Part shown: one piece after another, positions 10,571-64,000 of the stretch
Layout of the letters: each line of letters starts with the position of its first letter
Position numbering within the stretch: the stretch's first letter is position 1
Assembly (NCBI GenBank): GCA_023227985.1
Contig: JALOCB010000004.1
Location: forward strand, 7,442-71,441
Length of the DNA: 64,000 nt
Source: Candidatus Omnitrophota bacterium
Lineage (GTDB): Bacteria; Omnitrophota; Gorgyraeia; Gygaellales; Profunditerraquicolaceae
Direction: 5' to 3'
Position numbers and translations under genes: made by a program
Notes under the pieces: generated by a model
Databases searched by the model: none
Told to the model about the DNA's origin: nothing
Seen by the model: the letters and a program-made list of their open reading frames with translations, nothing else

Positions 10571-12700
10571 CTATTTAAACAACGAGTTAGAGATGATGAA
10601 CGCCGAGAAAACGATCGACACCATAGACATCAGCTTGATCAGGATGTTCAAAGACGGCCCGGAGGTATCTTTGAACGGGTCGCCCACGGTATCCCCTACT
10701 ACGCCGGCTTTATGGGCCTGAGAGCCTTTTCCGCCGTGGTGGCCTTCCTCTATATATTTCTTGGCATTGTCCCAGGCGCCGCCGGAATTAGCCATCATTA
10801 TCGCCAACACGAAACCGGTGACCGTGGCTCCGCACAAAAGCCCGGCAACCGCGTTAACCCCTGCCAATAACCCCACGATGATCGGGGCAGTGATAGCCAA
10901 TAAAGACGGCAGGATCATTTCCTGCTGCGCGGCAGCGGTGGCGATATCCACACACCGGGCATAATCCGGCTTGGCTTTGCCTTCCATCAAACCGACTATC
11001 TCCTTGAACTGCCGGCGGACCTCTACGACTATTTTCCCGGCTGCCCTGCCTACCGCGCGCATTGTCATCGAACAAAAAAGGAACGGCATCATTGCGCCGA
11101 CGAACAACCCAATCAACACATTGGGGTTCATCAGGCTAAGATCCAGGTTGAAGTCGATGCCTCTTTGCTGCACGGTCATAATAACCTGGTCCCGATATGC
11201 GGCGATCAAAGCCAAAGCGGTCAAAGCAGCTGAGCCGATGGCAAACCCTTTGCCTGTGGCGGCTGTGGTATTTCCTAATGAATCCAGGGCATCGGTCCTT
11301 TTCCTTACTTCAGGAGGAAGATGCGACATCTCGGCGTTACCGCCGGCATTATCCGCGACCGGGCCATAGGCGTCAGTGGCTAAGGTGATCCCCAGCGTGG
11401 ACAGCATGCCTACAGCCGAGATCGCTATGCCGTAAAGGCCGATGTTGAAATCCTGCGCGCCGCCTGATAAAAAGAAACTAGCCATTATAGCAATACAAAC
11501 CACTAATACCGGTATAGCTGTAGACATCATACCCACCGCCAAACCGCTGATTATTACAGTAGCCGGCCCGGTTAGCGCTGAATCGGCGATAGTTTGGGTC
11601 GGTTTAAAACCGCTGGATGTATAGTATTCAGTGACCAAGCCGATGATCACCCCGGCGATCAAGCCGGAAAGAACCGACCAGTAAACCCCTATATGCTCCG
11701 CCCCCAAAATATGCCTGATCAGGAAATAAGAGATTATTGCCACGATCAAAGAGCTGGTGAACACGCCTTTCCTCAAAGCGGCCAACAACACTGACTGACT
11801 GGCGTTTTCCTTGCTCTGGACGAAGAAAGTCCCGATTATCGAAGCGATAACCCCTACTGCCGCCATAACCAGGGGCACGGTGACCCCGGCAAGGCCCAAT
11901 CCCGCGGCAACGCCTAAAGCTGAAGTGGCGACTATGGAACCGACATAAGATTCGTAAAGATCGGCGCCCATACCGGCAACGTCGCCGACATTATCGCCGA
12001 CATTATCCGCTATAACCGCGGGATTTCTCGGGTCATCTTCCGGTATGCCTGCTTCCACCTTGCCTACCAGATCGGCTCCGACGTCAGCCGCCTTGGTGAA
12101 GATACCGCCGCCAACGCGGGCAAAAAGCGCCTGAGAGCTTGCGCCCATGCCGAAACAAAGCATTGTAGAGGTGATCGCGGCGATCTTATCCATTCCAATA
12201 ACAACCGGGTGGGCCGTATAATACCAATCAAGAAAATAATACCAGATACTCAAATCCAACAGCCCCAAACCTACCACGGTCATTCCCATTACCGCGCCGC
12301 TGGAAAACGCGCAACGCAGGCCGGCGTTCAGGCTCTTTGTTGCAGCGGCAGCTGTGCGGTTTGAAGCCTTAGTGGCTATGGTCATGCCGATAAAACCGGA
12401 AAGCCCGGAAAAGAACCCGCCGGTCAAAAAAGCGAACGGGACGAACATAACCAGGTACTTCATATACGCCAAGGCAAGCAGTATGAAAAAAACTACAAAA
12501 AAGAACACGGCTACGCCTATGTATTGCCTCTTCAGATAGGCCTGCGCGCCTATCCGGACCGCCAAGGCGATCTCTTTCATTTTATCCGTGCCTTCATCCA
12601 TCCTCAATAAAGATACCGCCAAATAGAAAGCAAATCCCAGAGCTAGAATCGAACCCACAGGGGCAAGCAACAACAGATCAAAATGCATACTTTCCTCCAT
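10571..12700 (-). CDS. hppA: membrane-bound proton/sodium-translocating pyrophosphatase
   Basis: Contains [27 protein letters not shown] and [12 protein letters not shown], which are H+-PPase signatures. The protein is 709 aa long with about 16 transmembrane helices. Confidence 0.92.
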
Positions 12701-12815: not shown

Positions 12816-15800
12816 CTACGCTTGGGCTTCTTTTTGCTTCTGCTTCTCTTCGAGTATCTTCGCGGCTACCTCAGCAGGGACTTGCGCGTATTTATCGAAT
12901 TCCATGGAGGCATTGGCCCTGCCGCTGGAAAGCGAACGGAACCCGGTGGCATAACCGAACATCTCGGAAAGCGGGGCTTCCGCGTCAACGACCTTCTGAT
13001 TGCCTTTCATCTCCATCCCCAGCACCTTTCCTCTGCGGGAACAGATATAGCTGATCACGCCGTTGACGTATTCCTCAGGGGTAGTGACCTCCAAAGACAT
13101 TGACGGTTCAAGCAGCACAGGGCTGGCTTTCATGAACACCTTCTTAAAACAAGCTATTGCCGCCAGTTTAAAAGCCAGTTCCGAGGAATCCACGTCGTGG
13201 AACGAACCATCCAGGAGGTTGATCTTTATATCCACAACAGGATACCCCGCGTAAACACCGTTTTTCATCGCCTCAACAACGCCCTTTTCTATTGCAGGGA
13301 AGAACGAGCGGGGAATAGCCCCGCCTTTTATGCTGTTGATGAATTCAAACCCTTTGCCCGGCTCATTGGGGGATATCTCAAAAACCACATGGCCGTATTG
13401 GCCGCGCCCGCCGGATTGCTTTATATGCTTATACTCATCCTTAGCGATGGCCTGGATAGTTTCGCGGTAAGCCACCTTGGGTTTTCCTACTACCGCGTCC
13501 ACTCCAAACTCGTTCTTCAGCCGGTCAACGATGATCTCCAGGTGCAATTCGCCCATACCGGTAAGCACTGTCTCTTGGGTCTCCTGATCGGATTGCACGA
13601 TAAATGTCGGGTCTTCTTCAGTAAGCTTGGCCAGACCTTTACCAAGCTTATCCTGGTCAGCCCTGCTTTTCGGCACGATACTTAAAGAAACCACAGGCAC
13701 CGGGAACTGGATCGTCTCTAACAAAACCGGGCTGTCCATATCGCTGAGCGTATCCCCGGTCACGGTATTTCCCAGGCCGATCACCGCCACGATATCTCCG
13801 GCAAAGGCATGCTCTTTTGGTTCGCGCTGATTCGCGTGCATCTGCAGGATGCGGCCGATCCTTTCTCTTTTGTTCTTGGTCACATTCAAGACATAAGTGC
13901 TGTTGTCCAACCTTCCCGAATAAACCCGCACATAAACCAGTTTACCCATATGCGGGTCGGTCTGGACCTTGAAAGCCAGACCGCAAAAAGGCTCATTGCT
14001 GTCAGGTTTACGCTCTATCGAGTTTTCCGTATTATCAGGGCTGGTCGCCTTGACCGCAGGGACATCCAGCGGAGACGGCAGGAACATATTTACCGCATCC
14101 AGAAGCTTTTGCACTCCCTTATTCTTAAAAGACGCCCCGCAAAGCACCGGAACAAGTTTATTCGCCACAGTCCCCTTACGGATAACTCTTACCAGTTCTT
14201 CTGTAGTCACGGAATCCGGCGATTCCAGGTACTTTTTCATCAACTCATCGTCGAAAGCCACTGCCCTCTCCAGCAGGATATGCCGGTATTTAGCGGCGCT
14301 TTCCTTATATCCCTCGGGGATATCTTCGATCTTATATTCCTTGCCCATTGTTTCATCGTCGTAAATATAGGACTTCATTTCGATCAAGTCGATCACCCCG
14401 CGGAATTTATCCTCGGCGCCCAAAGGTATCTCCAAGGCTGCCGCGTTAGCTCCCAATATTTTTTCGATCCCGGTCAATACAGCGAAAAAATCCGCTCCGG
14501 TGCGGTCCATCTTATTCACAAAGGCGATCTTGGCTACATTGTATTTATTCGACTGTCTCCAGACTGTTTCCGACTGCGGCTCAACCCCGCCTACAGCGCA
14601 AAAAAGCGCAACCGCGCCGTCAAGCACGCGCAAACTGCGCTCCACCTCAACAGTAAAATCCACATGGCCCGGTGTATCAATGATATTGATCCGACAGTCT
14701 TTCCAGAAACAGGTAGTGGCTGCCGAAGTAATGGTGATCCCTCTTTCCTGCTCCTGCTTCATCCAGTCCATCTGGGCCTTGCCGTCATGAACCTCGCCGA
14801 TCTTATATGATTTCCCGGTGTAATACAGTATACGCTCTGTGGTGGTGGTTTTCCCGGCGTCGATATGCGCCATAATCCCGATATTCCTTACTTTCTGCAG
14901 TTCTATTTCCGGGGCAATGAATACTTTAGGCTTTGCTTCTACGGCCTCGGCGGGCGCTTCTTCCAAAACAGGCTCGGCCGCAGGGTCCGGGATATCCGGC
15001 GCGGCTTCCGGAACAGATTCCGGAATAACAGGAATCTCTCCTGCCGGTTGAACTAACGGCTTCTCATCTTCTGCGGGAGCGATTGGTTGAGGTTCAGGCA
15101 CAGATTCCGCAAGGACTTGGGGGATCTCCGTCCTTACTTCTTCAACTTTAACCGGGGACGGAACGGACTGGCGCTGGACCTGGGCGTATAAATCCTTGAT
15201 CATCGCTTCTTTTCTTTCCAGCGCCTTGTCTTTTTCCCCTAATTCCTCTTCCAACTTGCTGTATTCTTCATTAAGACTGTTAAAATCTTTCTTGGAGATC
15301 CATTCGCTTTCCTCCAGGTCTTTCCTCATCTTCCGCACGGTACGAGAAAGCTCCTTGGCTTCATCGGCCTTAGCCTCCAGGTCTTTCAACAGACGGGCTA
15401 TCTGATGGCGCATCTTCTCCATCTCTTCGGCCTTGGCCTTGTTCTCATCTTCAAGCTTGCTGTACCTCTCAGCGGCTGCCCGCAAATCCCGGTTCAGATC
15501 CACGTTCTTGGAATATTCCAACACCAGTTCTTTTTCTTTCTGAAAAAGCACGTCCTTGTTCTCTATCGCCTCTCTTTTTATTTTATTGGCATCCTCTTCA
15601 TTGCGATCAAACCATTCTTTGCGCTTGAGCAGCTCTTCCTTAAACCCTGCCTCGGATTTCCTGGCGGCATCCAGGTTTTTCTGCAACTCAACGCGATCGG
15701 CATTTATTTTTTCCAATTCAGCGCTAAGACCGGCAGCCTGTTCCTGCAGTTTGGTTATCCGCGGATCCTGAACCGGGGCCTTTTTCTTGTTTTTATCATC

Positions 15801-15881
15801 AGCTGCCGGGATAGTCATAAAATACCATCCCAGGCCGATAACTATAAAAAGAGCCAATATCCCGATCAACATGTAAGTCAT
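12816..15881 (-). CDS. elongation factor G fused to an N-terminal transmembrane helix, coiled-coil and Pro/Glu-rich linker
   Basis: The 1021-aa ORF is continuous. Residues about 4-24 are hydrophobic ([17 protein letters not shown]). Residues about 40-235 are K/E-rich and heptad-like, consistent with a coiled coil. Residues about 236-320 are P/E/A-rich. Residues about 325-1021 are a full EF-G: G1 [10 protein letters not shown]3 DTPGH and G4 NKMD, with domains II-V through to ...[17 protein letters not shown]. No in-frame stop codon and no ATG/GTG/TTG start with a ribosome-binding site is found at the junction. Confidence 0.8.
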
Positions 15882-59360: not shown

Positions 59361-59420
59361 ACGCAGATTGTAGCATAACCCAGGCTAAAGGTCAAATCAG
59401 GATAGGGTGTAAAAGGCGGC

Positions 59421-60320
59421 TTAGTTGATATCTCTGGATATTACCGCGGTAGCGCAAGCCAGGCCGCCCGCCCCGTTGGCCAATTCGGCAAGTTTAAGCT
59501 CCGCGGCTATTTTGATCTTGCGCTTGCGGTAAAATTCCCTGGTTCGCGGACAATCAGCGGGCATAATGATCTTGCGCGGGGCAACGCAAACAATGTTCAT
59601 CGCCTGTTTTTCTTTGACCTCGGCATTAGCCGGGACTTTTATGATCTTTATCTTATTATTCCGCAGCAGATCAAACAGATCCATATACGGGTAATCAGCC
59701 CTGACCAAAGCCAAATCCGAATCTATTAACTGCAGACTGCCCAGCAGGTGCAGCGTGATTTTAGGCGCGGGCACGCTGATACAGCGTATCCCTTGTCCGG
59801 CCAATGTCTTTTTGACCTGCTTAAACCCTGCTGCATTAGTCCGCCTGCCAACGCCAACCACAACCAGCTTGTTATTCAGCCATAAGGCATCCGCGGCTTC
59901 AAAAGTTCCTTGCCCTTTAACCGCCCCGATCACCGGGATGCCGGATCCTTTCAGTAATTTTCTAACCTGACCGGGCTCCTTGCTTCTCACGGAACTGGCC
60001 ATCTTCGCTATTATCGCGCCTTTAGGGCTCATAAAGAAAAGATCCCGGGTGTATATCAGATTAAATAAATTCTGTCCGGCACGATCCGGATTATCCCGCG
60101 GTTTAAGCATAAACACCTTAATGCTTAACCTGCGAAAACATTCTTGGATCTTGCGGTATTCTTTTTTGATCCCCGGGTAATCTATCCTGCGTAGATGCAA
60201 CACGCTTTCCGGATCAGTGATATTCGCTATTTCCGGACCGGGCTGATAAAGCAGCACCCTGCGCAGCCGCTTATATTCCGAATCCGGGAAATTATTTCCG
60301 GGCATGCGCATTAAAACCAC
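59421..60320 (-). CDS. amidinotransferase-superfamily enzyme, DDAH-like (dimethylarginine dimethylaminohydrolase/arginine deiminase family)
   Basis: Contains GTFEAADALWL...GRRTNAAG, IIMPADCPRTRE and the C-terminal GGLACATAV catalytic Cys motif. These parallel Pseudomonas DDAH (GTVEAGD...ARTNAEG, VIMPAGYPRTRE, GGVSCMSL). Confidence 0.6.
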   Translation of the reverse strand: MVLMRMPGNNFPDSEYKRLRRVLLYQPGPEIANITDPESVLHLRRIDYPGIKKEYRKIQECFRRLSIKVFMLKPRDNPDRAGQNLFNLIYTRDLFFMSPKGAIIAKMASSVRSKEPGQVRKLLKGSGIPVIGAVKGQGTFEAADALWLNNKLVVVGVGRRTNAAGFKQVKKTLAGQGIRCISVPAPKITLHLLGSLQLIDSDLALVRADYPYMDLFDLLRNNKIKIIKVPANAEVKEKQAMNIVCVAPRKIIMPADCPRTREFYRKRKIKIAAELKLAELANGAGGLACATAVISRDIN

Positions 60321-61717
60321 TCCTTGGTATTTCTTATGTCATATCCCAGGGATCGGGCCATCCGGCCGATCCGCTTATCCTTCAAGAACGGGGCCAACAA
60401 GCGCGCCCTGGCTTTCCAACGGTATGGCTTCGGGCTCTTGGTCGCCTGAACGACCGGAAGTTTATCCAGCCCGAGCATATGAATATCCTTTTTATCCAAC
60501 CCGATAAAATCAAATATATTTTCTACCTCGGTTAACCTGCGGCCTCTGCCAGAGATGATATTCTCGTATTTTACCTGAAGGCTGTTTCTTTTTCCGCTGG
60601 CCTTGATATGATCCCGTATTGCCTTATTGGCGCTGTACCACTGAAAAGCGCAAACCTCTGCCAGGGCTTTTCCGGCGTACCCCTGCCAGCCTTCCGGCAG
60701 ATCATATTTCCACCACCATTTACCCCAATCATATTTATTAGAATACCCCCGGATATTCAGCTCTTTCACCTTAGCCCTGCCGGAAGCGCACAATCTTTTA
60801 AGATTATGCGAGAAGAACCCCCTAAAAAGCCATCCGTCATACAAACCATTGATCGAACCAAAAGGATTCCGGGTCAAATGGATAATCTTGATATCGGCGT
60901 TAGGCAGCAACTGCCGCAAAAAAGGCATATTGTAACAATCTGCCGTGGATTTTAAGAACAGGATATTATCTTTTAGGCCGGTTTTCGAGGGCGTTACCCT
61001 GGGAGATAAAAGAATAAACGGCGGCTCTTCTAGCAATACTAAATCATTCGGCGGTCCTTGAGGCAGGGATATCCCGGGGAAAGCGCCCCTTACCAACTCC
61101 TGCCGGATATCATAATAATACGGATTTATCCCCGGATATTTCCTTCTCAGCGACCTGATCAGTTCCAGATAGAAGCGCTCTTTTTTAAAAACCGCGCTGG
61201 ACGCGCCGTATCTGCGGAAAGCCCGCGATGCGCATTCCCGGAATATAACGTAGGAAAACCCGATCTGCGGCCATTGCAAAGGGAAACGCAAAGCCAGGTC
61301 ATCTATATACTCATCCAATAAGCGTTTATCAGTAAAGATACTGCCCGGGCGGGAGCCGGAAGAAAGATCGCTGAAGAGATCCCGTGAAAGGCCTGCTTTC
61401 TTTTCAGATATACGGCCCAGGGCAGCAGGTATCCTATCGGATAAAGAAAGGTCGGAAGAAAACCCGTTTAACTTGTAGAACGGCGCAGCCTCGCCGGTCA
61501 AAGAATATAACCGGGATGATCTCTTCAATACCGCGTATAGTAAGCTTGAACCGGACCGGGAAGCCGAGCTGATCACAACCGCCTTGCGCACATCCGCCAG
61601 CCCGGAGTCCCGCCATAACAACCATTGCCTCTTGGCCGCGATCTTGTCAAATATCCGCTGCCTGAGATCCAACACCCTCTTGATCTGCTTATCCGCTGGG
61701 TTTATCTTATCCGGCAT
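60311..61717 (-). CDS. sulfotransferase-family protein (long form)
   Basis: Contains a 5'-PSB-like P-loop (VVISSASRSGSSLL) and a 3'-PB-like motif (KIIHLTRNP). The protein is 468 aa and overlaps its neighbours at both ends. Confidence 0.5.
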   Translation of the reverse strand: MPDKINPADKQIKRVLDLRQRIFDKIAAKRQWLLWRDSGLADVRKAVVISSASRSGSSLLYAVLKRSSRLYSLTGEAAPFYKLNGFSSDLSLSDRIPAALGRISEKKAGLSRDLFSDLSSGSRPGSIFTDKRLLDEYIDDLALRFPLQWPQIGFSYVIFRECASRAFRRYGASSAVFKKERFYLELIRSLRRKYPGINPYYYDIRQELVRGAFPGISLPQGPPNDLVLLEEPPFILLSPRVTPSKTGLKDNILFLKSTADCYNMPFLRQLLPNADIKIIHLTRNPFGSINGLYDGWLFRGFFSHNLKRLCASGRAKVKELNIRGYSNKYDWGKWWWKYDLPEGWQGYAGKALAEVCAFQWYSANKAIRDHIKASGKRNSLQVKYENIISGRGRRLTEVENIFDFIGLDKKDIHMLGLDKLPVVQATKSPKPYRWKARARLLAPFLKDKRIGRMARSLGYDIRNTKEWF

Positions 61718-62727
61718 CTGCGCATGACCCCGATAAATTTAAGGAACCAAAATTTCTTAAGCCTTAACCCGGCGTTTTTGTCCCGGAACAAATGCGCCAG
61801 CTGCACCTTTATCATAAGAGCTGTCTCCTCGATCAGGTAACGCAGCTTGAACTTGACCCCGCCGGACCTGCGGCTTTCCGAGAGATAAAAAGGCTCGGTT
61901 AGATTATACGAGAAATGGTCGAGTTCTTCCCCGGCCATAGTTTCGATCAAAGATACCTCTTGAGGTTTCAGGCTTTTCTTGAATTTATCGAAATTGCCTT
62001 TTAGGATCGGCTTGGAAGTATTTGCCCAGGCCGAGCTCAACCCCGAGCTTTTTTTTGCCTCTTCGCCGGTGAAGAAAAAAAGCATGTCTTCAACGTACGG
62101 TTCGTCAAGGAAAGCGCACAGATCCCGGATCGTCTTTTCCGGATCGGTCAGGAGACCCTCATAACGCAGAAGGAATATTTCTTCTTTCGGTAATTTACTC
62201 AACCAGTATATGCCGGTCTGCTGCTCTTTTTTCCACAGTCTGGCGGTATAATAAACGCAGTAGCGGTTAAAGATCGTCTTCTTGGCCGAAACCGCCACAT
62301 CCCGGCAATCACGCACCATATATATGAACCTGGCGTTCGGATAATATCTTCTGACCAGTCCGACATGGTCGATCATAAAAGTGCTCTTACAGCCCCATCT
62401 CTTCTTGCCGGTGCTCTCCAGGTATTGGTCGTATACAGCGAAGTATATGCTGATGAGGCTTTTATCCAGGGCTGTTCGGAATATTTTTCCCCTGTCCAGC
62501 CCGATCTCCCAGGGATACGGATGCAACTCAACAGACCTGGCCACGTCATTGATCAGCAGCCGAAAGTTACGGTCGACGGCAAGATCGCCGTAAAACTGCT
62601 CTAATCCAAAAAAATTCTTGAGGATATGGGGGGGATGCGGTATGGCGATGTCAGGATGGGAATTCAGGATCAACCGGAGAAGGTTAGTCCCGGAACGTTC
62701 CGTGCCTATAATGAATATCGGATCCAT
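61702..62727 (-). CDS. sulfotransferase (Sulfotransfer_3-like)
   Basis: Contains IFIIGTERSGTNLL (PAPS 5'-phosphosulfate-binding loop) and YMVRDCRDVAVS (3'-phosphate-binding motif). Confidence 0.7.
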   Translation of the reverse strand: MDPIFIIGTERSGTNLLRLILNSHPDIAIPHPPHILKNFFGLEQFYGDLAVDRNFRLLINDVARSVELHPYPWEIGLDRGKIFRTALDKSLISIYFAVYDQYLESTGKKRWGCKSTFMIDHVGLVRRYYPNARFIYMVRDCRDVAVSAKKTIFNRYCVYYTARLWKKEQQTGIYWLSKLPKEEIFLLRYEGLLTDPEKTIRDLCAFLDEPYVEDMLFFFTGEEAKKSSGLSSAWANTSKPILKGNFDKFKKSLKPQEVSLIETMAGEELDHFSYNLTEPFYLSESRRSGGVKFKLRYLIEETALMIKVQLAHLFRDKNAGLRLKKFWFLKFIGVMRRCRIR

Positions 62728-62759
62728 TTGGCAATATTTACGGCTTATTCAATACGGTG

Positions 62760-63536
62760 TTATTTTTTTCCGCAGGCGATAACCATCTTCATCGAATCGA
62801 AAATGTCCCTGCCGGCAAAACGCACATTGTGGGTCCTCTTAAAATCTTCCGGGGCCCGGCGGTAGGCCTCTTTTATCTTTTCTTTTGCGCCTTTCGATAT
62901 AGCCCCGTTATCTATCCATTTATTGACCGATTCACGGGTGATGTATTCTACGTTCTTTATCCCGGAAAATCCATTCCGCTTAAGGGCAAGTGAAACATCC
63001 TGCGGCAGGAAAAAGTTCTTACGCGCGGGATTACGCAGCCTCTGCACATGAAAGGTCAATTGGCGGTCGGCTTGGCTGTGCGCGGTCAAATGGCATAAAA
63101 CCACTTTGCCTGAAGGCTTTAAAACCCTGAGCATCTCCGGCAACACCTTATCCAAATGCATGAATTGCAGGCCCTGGCGGCATACGCAAATATCAAAACT
63201 GCTGTTCTTAAAAGGCAGTTTCTCGGCGTTGCTCAACACCGTAGCGTCGGCAGAACCCTGCGCGCGCGCGATCATCTGCCTGCAGTTATCCAGGCCTACC
63301 ACATAACCCGCCTTCCGGCGGAACACCTGTGAGATCTTGCCTGTGCCGATAGCCACATCCAAAACCCGGGAGGTCTTTGACGCCCCGGACAACTGAAGCA
63401 TTTTTTTGATAAGGGTCAGGTCATTTACCCAATGCGAGGAATTGTCGTATTTTGCCGCTCTTTTCCTGAAGTGATTTCCGGGGTTTTGGCTGGGATAAGA
63501 CCTGACGGTCATTTTTATTTTTTTCCGAATAAGCAA
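62760..63536 (-). CDS. class I SAM-dependent methyltransferase
   Basis: Contains VLDVAIGTGKISQ (motif I GxGxG), an acidic motif II and motif III. Length is 258 aa. Confidence 0.75.
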   Translation of the reverse strand: MLIRKKIKMTVRSYPSQNPGNHFRKRAAKYDNSSHWVNDLTLIKKMLQLSGASKTSRVLDVAIGTGKISQVFRRKAGYVVGLDNCRQMIARAQGSADATVLSNAEKLPFKNSSFDICVCRQGLQFMHLDKVLPEMLRVLKPSGKVVLCHLTAHSQADRQLTFHVQRLRNPARKNFFLPQDVSLALKRNGFSGIKNVEYITRESVNKWIDNGAISKGAKEKIKEAYRRAPEDFKRTHNVRFAGRDIFDSMKMVIACGKK

Positions 63537-64000
63537 AACGAATGTTCCCTGGACTGGGTAAAGCCGATCTTATCCAGTATTTCCCGGACACAATCCTCGA
63601 CATTCCTGGACTCGGTGTTGATCACCATATCCGGATGCGCCGGGCTATCAAAAGGCGCCGAAACGCCGGTGAAATCCCTGATCTGTCCAGCCCGGGCTTT
63701 TTTATACATCCCTTTTACATCCCTTTGCTCGCAGACCTTCGGGCTGCATTTGACAAAAGCCAGTTTAAAGTTGCCGATAATATCTTTGACCATATTCCTC
63801 AATTCATCGGACGGAGAAACAAAACTGGCTATGACGAAATTGCCGTTGTCGTTGAATAATTTAGCGACGCAGGCGATGCGCCGGAGATTCTCTTTCCGGT
63901 CATCAGGAGAGAAGCCCAGGTCGGAATTCAAGGTGCTACGGACATCGTCGGCGTCCAGATGCACGGCCTTGAAACCCCGGTTAGACATCTCTTCCTTCAA
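63515..64000 (-). CDS. cysC: adenylylsulfate (APS) kinase; 5' end lies beyond the window
   Basis: Contains ...HLDADDVRSTLNSDLGFSPDDRKENLRRIACVAKLFNDNGNFVIASFVSPSD...KGMYKKARAGQIRDFTGVSAPFDSPAHPDMVI, which is the CysC core. The N-terminal P-loop is absent, so the gene continues past 64000. Confidence 0.8.
   Translation of the reverse strand: MKEEMSNRGFKAVHLDADDVRSTLNSDLGFSPDDRKENLRRIACVAKLFNDNGNFVIASFVSPSDELRNMVKDIIGNFKLAFVKCSPKVCEQRDVKGMYKKARAGQIRDFTGVSAPFDSPAHPDMVINTESRNVEDCVREILDKIGFTQSREHSFCLFGKK

Follow-up and report, generated by a model that had tools for sequence, protein, structure and literature searches.

The natural route to the S-N bond of the sulfamates is unsolved, and genetics already implicates at least 11 genes in it. 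A 2021 review counts only eight natural sulfonamides and sulfamates, all of them from actinomycetes (PMC9113183). The closest described systems to the one considered here are the gene clusters for nucleocidin (nuc; Streptomyces calvus and S. virens) and ascamycin (acm; Streptomyces sp. JCM9888). I compare with them five genes that end a stretch of 64,000 nucleotides, called here the window, from an uncultured Candidatus Omnitrophota bacterium (GenBank assembly GCA_023227985.1, contig JALOCB010000004.1, positions 7,442 to 71,441, forward strand). Judged from their sequences, the five are homologous to the conserved core of the nuc/acm sulfamylation genes (K, L, N, O and the adenylylsulfate (APS) kinase), and a reduced variant of that cassette, specific to Omnitrophota, is the better description of the region.

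In S. calvus, knockout of nucI, nucG or nucJ, of nucK, nucL, nucN or nucO, of nucQ or nucP, or of the APS kinase gene in each case abolishes sulfamylation, not fluorination (PMC10946740). The same study reports that NucK gives strong matches to both Sulfotransfer_1 and Sulfotransfer_3, and that NucO gives a weak Sulfotransfer_3 match at residues 226-310, its nearest structures being CurM (4GBM) and an olefin synthase (4GOX). The table of acm genes (PMC4257720) lists a sulfatase (AcmG), radical S-adenosylmethionine (SAM) proteins (AcmH and AcmJ), an 'acylsulfatase' (AcmI), an APS kinase (AcmB), a sulfotransferase of 356 aa (AcmK), a methyltransferase of 250 aa (AcmL), an 'amidinotransferase' of 319 aa (AcmN), a hypothetical protein of 444 aa (AcmO), a 'DNA topoisomerase II' of 658 aa (AcmP), and a rubrerythrin of 155 aa (AcmQ). 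The literature searched contains no solved mechanism and no report of the cassette outside actinomycetes.

A five-gene operon

An initial annotation, made from the letters of the window alone, saw at its end five tightly packed minus-strand genes, apparently an operon, and missed their link to nuc/acm sulfamylation. All five open reading frames (ORFs) are confirmed on the minus strand where it had put them. The first to be read, an APS kinase domain (63515..64000; PF01583, APS_kinase, E 9.5e-44), supplies the C-terminal 161 aa of a fusion protein of 306 aa, whose N-terminus is cut at the window end. Next comes a SAM-dependent class I methyltransferase of the NucL/AcmL type (62760..63512), assigned to that class at the outset and upheld in it by Methyltransf_11 (E 1e-18). 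Its ORF reaches back to a TTG at 63536 (span 62760-63536), and the likeliest start is ATG 63512, which gives 250 aa. There follow a 341-aa sulfotransferase of the NucK/AcmK type, dependent on 3'-phosphoadenylylsulfate (PAPS) (61702..62727; Sulfotransfer_3, E 6e-36, and Sulfotransfer_1, E 3.8e-15), a long sulfotransferase-like protein of the NucO/AcmO type, 468 aa (60311..61717; a weak central Sulfotransfer_3 match, E 1.6e-7), and a cysteine enzyme of the DDAH fold and the NucN/AcmN type (59421..60320; PF02274, ADI/DDAH fold, E 6e-18). The last is a 299-aa ORF from GTG 60320, for which ATG 60311 is the likeliest start (296 aa).

The five genes form a real operon, with junctions of the operon type. 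Two nucleotides separate the TAA of the APS kinase from ATG 63512 of the methyltransferase gene, the genes for the 341-aa and 468-aa sulfotransferases overlap by 16 nt, and the TAA of the 468-aa gene overlaps ATG 60311 of the DDAH-like gene in the sequence TAATG, with AGGAG 9 nt upstream of that ATG. In composition the operon does not stand out. The same proteins lie side by side in 80 loci of other genomes, and in four of the genes the ratio of nonsynonymous to synonymous substitution (dN/dS) is 0.04-0.18 against one relative, 75-93% identical; the arrangement is therefore far beyond chance.

The initial annotation had considered, and thought weak, an analogy with the guanidino-alkaloid pathways of the cyr/sxt kind. 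An amidino-superfamily enzyme, a sulfotransferase and an APS kinase do occur together here, and the same trio is found in the cyr cluster. The analogy nonetheless fails: there is no polyketide synthase (PKS) or nonribosomal peptide synthetase (NRPS), as that annotation had said of the window, no ORF is longer than 1021 aa, housekeeping genes account for the largest ORFs, and the enzyme resembles DDAH and not AGAT. Ordinary assimilatory sulfate activation is rejected as well. Neither the window nor the 8.7 kb examined past its end (locus L001) contains cysD, cysN, sat, cysH, a sulfite reductase, a glycosyltransferase, a PKS or an NRPS, and the genes on either side are nfo, a response regulator, leuS, tRNAs and rlmN. 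The only cysN-like match in the window is the GTPase domain of an EF-G-like gene. With no cysD, cysN, cysH or sulfite reductase nearby, the operon is not one for sulfate assimilation, and I find either of these two readings hardly credible.

Comparison with the nucleocidin and ascamycin genes

With the nucleocidin cluster (PMC10946740) the window shares counterparts of K, L, N, O and the APS kinase (nucA) and the same domain signatures: a weak Sulfotransfer_3 match in NucO, both sulfotransferase families in NucK, and PF02274 in NucN. Both sets are PAPS-dependent. With the ascamycin cluster (PMC4257720) it shares an APS kinase inside the cluster and the sizes of the proteins, AcmK being 356 aa against 341 here, AcmL 250 against 250, AcmN 319 against 296-299, and AcmO 444 against 468. 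AcmO was compared directly. The deposited protein (P0318), retrieved by a search seeded with the homologue from S. lomondensis, and the 468-aa protein are 32% identical over 406 aa (E 7e-62). K, L and N were matched by way of acm-like actinobacterial loci and published descriptions.

Identity between the window proteins and their counterparts in those actinobacterial clusters is 31-45%; the clusters also hold an AcmP-like GyrB-methyltransferase, an AcmQ-like rubrerythrin, a B12-radical-SAM enzyme and a sulfatase. Against the members of the S. lomondensis cluster (L082) the range is 33-42%; the order there is radical-SAM enzyme, sulfotransferase, methyltransferase, rubrerythrin-like protein, 658-aa GyrB-methyltransferase, long sulfotransferase and sulfatase. 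The 341-aa sulfotransferase is 35-39% identical to the sulfotransferase in two Streptomyces loci (L082, L085). The methyltransferase is 42-45% identical to that of the acm-like clusters in S. lomondensis and S. monomycini, and 50-58% identical to its counterpart in the Geobacter and Omnitrophota cassettes described below; the DDAH-like enzyme is 31% identical to a 319-aa homologue in a Micromonospora cluster (L081). In L082 (9351-13168) the fetched stretch shows no detectable NucN-type gene, and there follow a GTP cyclohydrolase II, a 378-aa protein and a HAD phosphatase, neighbours that may indicate a different nucleoside scaffold.

Unlike the nucleocidin cluster, the window has no counterparts of P (GyrB-methyltransferase), Q (rubrerythrin-like), J (B12-radical-SAM) or G and I (sulfatases) within 72 kb and no genes for nucleoside formation, fluorination, glucosylation or export; its APS kinase is fused to a mini nucleotidyltransferase, and its host is an uncultured Omnitrophota bacterium. 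Unlike the ascamycin cluster, it has no AlaRS-like genes, no cysD and no counterparts of acmG, acmH, acmI, acmJ, acmP or acmQ. Searches of the window and the 8.7-kb flank with tblastn and hidden Markov models (HMMs) found no B12-radical-SAM enzyme, sulfatase, second methyltransferase, rubrerythrin or GyrB domain.

Membership of the nuc/acm core points to S-N (sulfamate) chemistry over plain O-sulfation. The initial annotation proposed a dedicated biosynthetic cassette, and the operon is indeed one built around PAPS; the sulfated product that it envisaged gives way to a sulfamate as the chemistry indicated. Plain O-sulfation would have PAPS made on site and two sulfotransferases use it to O-sulfate a small molecule, glycolipid or glycan, with the methyltransferase and the DDAH-like enzyme tailoring the same molecule. 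It would be at home with intact PAPS motifs in both sulfotransferases, with a weak NoeE-like match, with the peptidoglycan (PG)-binding lipoprotein encoded upstream, and with the lack here of P, Q, J, G and I, which Streptomyces needs for sulfamylation. But a partner of the DDAH fold, kept across phyla together with its amino-acid-binding arginines, fits no scheme for O-sulfation of a glycan or lipid, and each of the four genes is an orthologue of one whose knockout puts an end specifically to sulfamylation (PMC10946740). Moreover, no glycosyltransferase or lipid gene is conserved nearby, and a tRNA gene stands between the PG-binding gene and the operon. I consider plain O-sulfation unlikely.

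Forms of the cassette in other phyla

The cassette was surveyed by fetching 80 of the 217 genomic loci that contain the long sulfotransferase and searching them with tblastn and family HMMs. The hosts are Omnitrophota, Geobacterales, Elusimicrobia, Bacteroidales, Nitrospirae, Myxococcota and various metagenome-assembled genomes (MAGs) labelled Proteobacteria, and besides these a Clostridiales MAG, Streptomyces lomondensis, S. monomycini, Micromonospora maritima and some cyanobacteria. K, O and N occur together in 51 of the 80 loci, and in 40 of the 80 they are joined by L. ORF clustering and Pfam matches bring out other recurrent members: one or two B12-radical-SAM enzymes, S1-type sulfatases, a rubrerythrin-like small protein, a protein of the metallo-beta-lactamase (MBL) fold, and a protein in which the GyrB N-terminal ATPase and transducer domains are fused to a methyltransferase. 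B12-radical-SAM, sulfatase, GyrB-methyltransferase and rubrerythrin-like genes are present in most of the loci. Some loci add cysD, cysN and an APS kinase.

The loci take three forms. The first is the whole acm-like set, GyrB-methyltransferase and rubrerythrin-like protein included, and is found in Actinobacteria, many of the MAGs labelled Proteobacteria, Myxococcota and some Elusimicrobia. The second, found in Omnitrophota, Geobacterales, Nitrospirae and Bacteroidales, does without these two genes and runs in the order stand-alone methyltransferase, radical-SAM enzyme, radical-SAM enzyme, methyltransferase, sulfotransferase, long sulfotransferase, DDAH-like enzyme. NucP- and NucQ-type genes are thus absent from all versions in Omnitrophota, Geobacter, Nitrospirae and Bacteroidales, as they are from the window, and a stand-alone second methyltransferase appears instead. 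To this form the Geobacterales add three sulfatases and the MBL-fold protein, and the Omnitrophota add the nucleotidyltransferase-APS kinase fusion. The third form, that of the window's lineage, consists only of the fusion, the NucL-type methyltransferase, and K, O and N, which is the second form minus its block of one methyltransferase and two radical-SAM genes. In another Omnitrophota locus (L022, 12581-14755) the ORF finder reads the radical-SAM enzyme and the NucL-type methyltransferase as one ORF of 724 aa, which is either a true fusion or an artefact of the start codon.

In a distance tree the window's protein falls inside an Omnitrophota clade whose other members have radical-SAM genes, and this placement makes the third form a secondary reduction. 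Relatives in which the long sulfotransferase is 75-83% identical keep the five-gene order, behind the same PG-binding gene; this synteny, together with the dN/dS values given above, indicates that the reduced operon is maintained by selection. A reduction of this kind might have left a partial pathway. The operon would then make an intermediate or a simpler product (for example free sulfamate, N-sulfo-arginine or N-sulfo-citrulline) or would rely on genes for radical-SAM enzymes, sulfatase and a second methyltransferase at some other place in the genome. Secondary loss of the methyltransferase and radical-SAM block, as the tree implies, speaks for such a remnant, and so do genomes that keep the O-N pair alone among housekeeping genes. 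Purifying selection of the strength seen here, however, means that the four retained genes still work together, and I regard a partial pathway as quite unlikely.

The long sulfotransferase and its DDAH-like partner

The 468-aa protein matches Sulfotransfer_3 weakly, at residues 251-288, and the profile of its family finds only 4GOX and 4GBM among solved structures, the two that were published as nearest to NucO. In 20 homologues R54, G56-L60, E76 and R283-P285 are invariant, along with many other residues. The 5'-phosphosulfate loop R54-S-G-S-S-L-L60 (RSGSSLL) and the 3'-phosphate motif R283-N-P (RNP) are likewise invariant in these homologues, and both sulfotransferase-like proteins retain their PAPS-binding motifs. 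E76 aligns with CurM Glu60, which I take to be CurM's proposed catalytic base. The protein resembles the CurM and olefin synthase sulfotransferases in its RSGS(S/T)LL PAPS loop, in the glutamate that follows the loop and in its 3'-phosphate motif. It differs from them in being about 150 aa longer, with the family-specific blocks EEPPF, NGLYDGW, WW..DLP.GW and FQW, and in standing free, outside any PKS and with no thioesterase partner.

Members of the family are about 440-470 aa long, and the closest to the window's protein come from Candidatus Omnitrophota MAGs. There are 424 word-indexed matches, and of 1.84 billion cluster representatives 349 match at E<=1e-30. One member (P0470, 873 aa) has a 468-aa N-terminal extension ahead of its sulfotransferase part. 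Cyanobacterial homologues from Microcoleus, Anabaena and Iningainema (L042, L043, L045, L071), 35-41% identical, have no DDAH-like partner; L071 has an APS kinase just upstream.

The DDAH-like enzyme has the DDAH of Pseudomonas aeruginosa as its best solved relative (3RHY/1H70), DDAH and ADI as its nearest relatives, and the motif GGLACATAV quoted in the initial annotation; it is indeed DDAH-like, as that annotation had said. DDAH residues D66, R85, E114, D117, R132, H162 and C249 correspond to D93, R112, E141, D144, R160, H191 and C289, and across 52 members of the family, drawn from many phyla, each of the seven is 98-100% conserved. The catalytic trio, the counterparts of DDAH Cys249, His162 and Glu114, is therefore among them, and so are those of Arg85 and Arg132, which I take to hold the alpha-carboxylate of the substrate. 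With DDAH the enzyme shares the fold, the Cys-His-Glu set, the guanidine-binding Asp and both carboxylate-binding arginines. It differs in having N87 for D60 and R92 for E65, in its conserved W147, C257 and R296, and in that enzymes of this type are always paired with a sulfotransferase. Its scores against NF045660 and NF045658 are 55.9 and 40.3 bits, where the cut-offs are 340 and 450. By sequence, then, it is an enzyme of the DDAH fold and not an orthologue of DDAH. The nearest relatives that have been characterised are hydrolases that free an amine from a substituted guanidine, and the label 'amidinotransferase' given to NucN and AcmN probably comes from an older name of PF02274.

In 64 of the 80 loci the DDAH-like gene directly follows that for the long sulfotransferase. 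Two independent natural fusions unite O and N in a single chain (P0325, 766 aa, and P0444, 788 aa). The pair also stands alone, among unrelated housekeeping genes, in Desulfobulbaceae, Myxococcota, Gammaproteobacteria and others (L050, L066, L069, L072, L075, L079), and the loci with only O and N have no neighbours in common. From the fusions and from the genomes with only this pair it follows that O-N is the functional heart of the cassette.

The other sulfotransferase, of 341 aa, is of the standard kind, with both motifs noted at the outset (5'-PSB GTERSGTNLL and 3'-PB RDCRDV). Its best solved relatives are protein-tyrosine sulfotransferase 1 (TPST1; E 2e-12) and the CurM sulfotransferase. 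The first of these might suggest a ribosomally synthesised and modified peptide, subject to TPST-like sulfation of tyrosine, deimination of arginine, and methylation, the more so as peptidyl-arginine deiminases belong to the ADI superfamily. But no conserved short ORF or precursor is seen, nor a conserved protease or exporter, and the DDAH-like enzyme keeps both of the arginines for a free alpha-carboxylate. A modified peptide is very improbable.

An APS kinase fused to a small nucleotidyltransferase

What the initial annotation called CysC is a bona fide APS kinase, but not a whole protein. The full fusion encoded by the operon's first gene scores 192.8 bits against TIGR00455 (apsK; cut-off 138.7), and its P-loop GLPCSGKT and the motifs LDADDVR, SFVSP and KGMYKKAR align with other APS kinases. 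Ahead of the kinase, past the window end, is a nucleotidyltransferase domain (residues 1-126) that matches CTP_transf_like, NMNAT-like and PPAT models and is of the HIGH-motif type (GRWQPFHNGH ... ISGTNVR). It belongs to a family of 113-135-aa proteins in which F-I-G-R-W, H-x-G-H, G-R-x-V-G and S-x-T-x-x-R are invariant. The arrangement recalls the Sat-CysC and CysN-CysC PAPS synthases in that a domain of an adenylyl-transfer fold is joined to a true APS kinase. It departs from them in that the N-terminal domain is 126 aa long and NMNAT-like, with no Sat or CysD/N domain; against NF004040 the fusion scores 160 bits, where the cut-off is 669.

Could the domain be a miniature ATP sulfurylase? 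In the cassette loci the fusion occupies the slot held in other lineages by cysD, cysN and an APS kinase, and the two are never found together, an exclusion that would fit a role in adenylylating sulfate. Against such a role speaks the setting of the closest stand-alone homologue (66% identity), whose neighbour on its Nanoarchaeota contig is DNA polymerase D, sulfur genes being absent. In a Foldseek comparison with a high-confidence fold model (pLDDT 91.6) of a stand-alone member that has 66% identity, archaeal NMN adenylyltransferases come nearest (TMq 0.72) and ATP sulfurylase ranks only 47th. The fold thus does not support the reading, and the idea is kept as a minority hypothesis for the sake of the exclusivity with cysDN.

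Three marine phage-like contigs (L088 5589-6351, L089 5589-6351, L090 5595-6357) carry a shortened APS-kinase-like gene of 145-156 aa, its lid segment deleted, which overlaps the start of a nucleotidyltransferase homologue of 116-118 aa with about 50% identity to the operon's domain. No sulfotransferase lies near this phage pair. PHROG 10255 is a fusion of kinase and nucleotidyltransferase. The pairing is genuine, and the fusion with its phage relatives amounts to a second unexplained module.

A model for sulfamate formation

I propose that the five-gene operon is a reduced cassette of the nuc/acm type whose product is a sulfamate, and I hold this to be probable, well short of certain. The APS kinase domain, whose identity is clear, would have the activity expected of it and make PAPS. 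The mini nucleotidyltransferase fused to it would be coupled to the kinase and, more tentatively, may make an adenylyl substrate. Both sulfotransferases, with their PAPS-binding motifs conserved, would use the PAPS, and the enzymes of the NucO and NucN types act as a pair, as their adjacency and natural fusions show. Most simply, the NucO type would form an N-omega-sulfonyl derivative of an arginine-like amino acid; alternatively, it would couple arginine to an acceptor already O-sulfated and activated by the enzyme of the NucK type. Next, in the manner of DDAH, the DDAH-like enzyme would break the C-N bond of the guanidino group and give citrulline and an N-S fragment, either free sulfamate or an R-O-SO2-NH2 (O-sulfamoyl) compound, with the guanidino nitrogen as the source of nitrogen. 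PAPS-dependent formation of the S-N bond, the guanidino nitrogen of an arginine-like amino acid serving as donor, is my best guess at the chemistry; I infer the formation and cleavage of N-omega-sulfonylarginine because the DDAH catalytic set and both alpha-carboxylate arginines are kept. As the acceptor, adenosine is suggested by analogy only.

The scheme explains why sulfamylation needs both sulfotransferases and an enzyme of the DDAH fold, what makes O and N inseparable, and why the arginines that bind the amino acid are conserved. It leaves the methyltransferases, the radical-SAM enzymes, the sulfatases, the GyrB domain and the rubrerythrin-like protein unaccounted for. Several considerations weigh against it. 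The step with arginine as donor is read from conserved residues alone, and in the literature searched no enzyme of the cassette has a biochemical characterisation or an assigned reaction. Of the nine cluster genes that S. calvus requires, five are lacking in this neighbourhood: nucP, nucQ, nucJ, nucG and nucI, each essential there for sulfamylation, have no counterpart in the window or the 8.7 kb beyond. B12-binding radical-SAM genes accompany K, L, O and N in 36 of the 40 loci where those four occur; by this measure the form in the window is atypical, and its product may be a different one or an incomplete one. Lastly, no acceptor-specific, nucleoside-specific, export or resistance gene is conserved beside the non-actinobacterial cassettes. 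Only the MBL-fold protein recurs near them (8 loci), and it is probably the counterpart of AcmI/NucI.

The proposal of a reduced sulfamate cassette has a bolder version, in which the four-gene core plus the fusion make up a self-sufficient, minimal sulfamate synthase. Here the NucO type would N-sulfonylate the guanidino group of arginine or join it to an O-sulfated acceptor, the DDAH-like enzyme would release sulfamate, and the 126-aa domain would be a minimal adenylyltransferase, hitherto unrecognised, feeding the APS kinase, with sulfate or sulfamate as its substrate. This version is speculative, and on present evidence rather improbable.

Surroundings of the operon

The initial annotation expected the cluster to continue past 64000, and recommended looking there for cysD, cysN, sat, glycosyltransferases, PKS and NRPS. 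Of the cassette, only the rest of the fusion gene lies there, beginning at an ATG preceded by an AGGAGG ribosome-binding site (about 64435 in window-equivalent numbering, L001 8293, minus strand). Beyond it come, in order, tRNA-Ala(GGC), the PG-binding lipoprotein, tRNA-Leu, a GDSL lipase and RlmN, with an aldolase, Dus and an RND pump also further upstream. The tRNA-Ala(GGC) gene (L001 8061-8136, about 64592-64667) stands upstream of the operon, 156 nt from its first gene; tRNA-Leu(CAA) (L001 7430-7514, about 65214-65298) is further out on the opposite strand to it; a relative (L087) also keeps both. On the other side, downstream of the operon, lie nfo, a receiver-domain protein (the response regulator) and leuS. 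From the flanking genes on both sides, the cassette consists of exactly five genes.

Counts of promoter and terminator sites in the region are at the level of shuffled sequence. One promoter-like site at 59367-59395 (L001 13333-13361; TTGACC, 17 nt, TACAAT, with an upstream TG; 10/12 matches) sits between the DDAH-like gene and nfo, which are 60 nt apart, the region's site counts being not above those of shuffled controls; nfo may have a promoter of its own. When 8 loci were scanned with Rfam, tRNAs and one unrelated FMN riboswitch were all that came up, with no riboswitch or other RNA control upstream of the operon. The FMN riboswitch (L044 4089-4296, in another Omnitrophota locus; 95 bits) precedes an unrelated gene some 2.7 kb ahead of the cassette.

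The neighbours prompt a few other ideas. A genomic island at tRNA-Ala finds no sign in the operon's composition, which is unremarkable; no search for att-like repeats was made. The ascamycin enzyme AcmF has been modelled with Ala-tRNA-Ala(GGC) (PMC12945691), and there being no AcmF-like gene here, the presence of that tRNA gene beside the operon is probably a coincidence. Self-resistance by way of leuS, three genes downstream, was rejected: leuS belongs to a conserved series of housekeeping genes, and in other loci it shows no link to the cassette. So was anti-phage defence, for which there is no PADLOC system match, only a generic methyltransferase match and one marginal P-loop match. Elsewhere in the window, the EF-G-like ORF (12816-15881, 1021 aa) has a GTPase domain that begins at residue 330, implying either a long N-terminal extension or an over-extended ORF. 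A membrane H+-pyrophosphatase gene lies at 10571-12700; removal of pyrophosphate would aid adenylyl transfer, and there is no evidence tying this gene to the operon.

Implications

The gene core known from actinomycete sulfamylation is now found in at least six other phyla. It contains an invariant two-gene unit, the long sulfotransferase and the DDAH-like enzyme, which is separable from the rest and sometimes fused, and it exists in a naturally pruned five-gene version that is still under selection. These three facts together provide a small, testable gene set for reconstituting the chemistry, and suggest that sulfamate metabolites are much more widespread than has been thought. Adenosine sulfamates are potent inhibitors of aminoacyl-tRNA synthetases. 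If the operon is a minimal sulfamate synthase, then sulfamate metabolites, possibly toxins that mimic AMP, would be made by many uncultured anaerobic phyla. The rare sulfamate (O-SO2-NH2) chemistry of nucleocidin and ascamycin may reach far beyond its known range.

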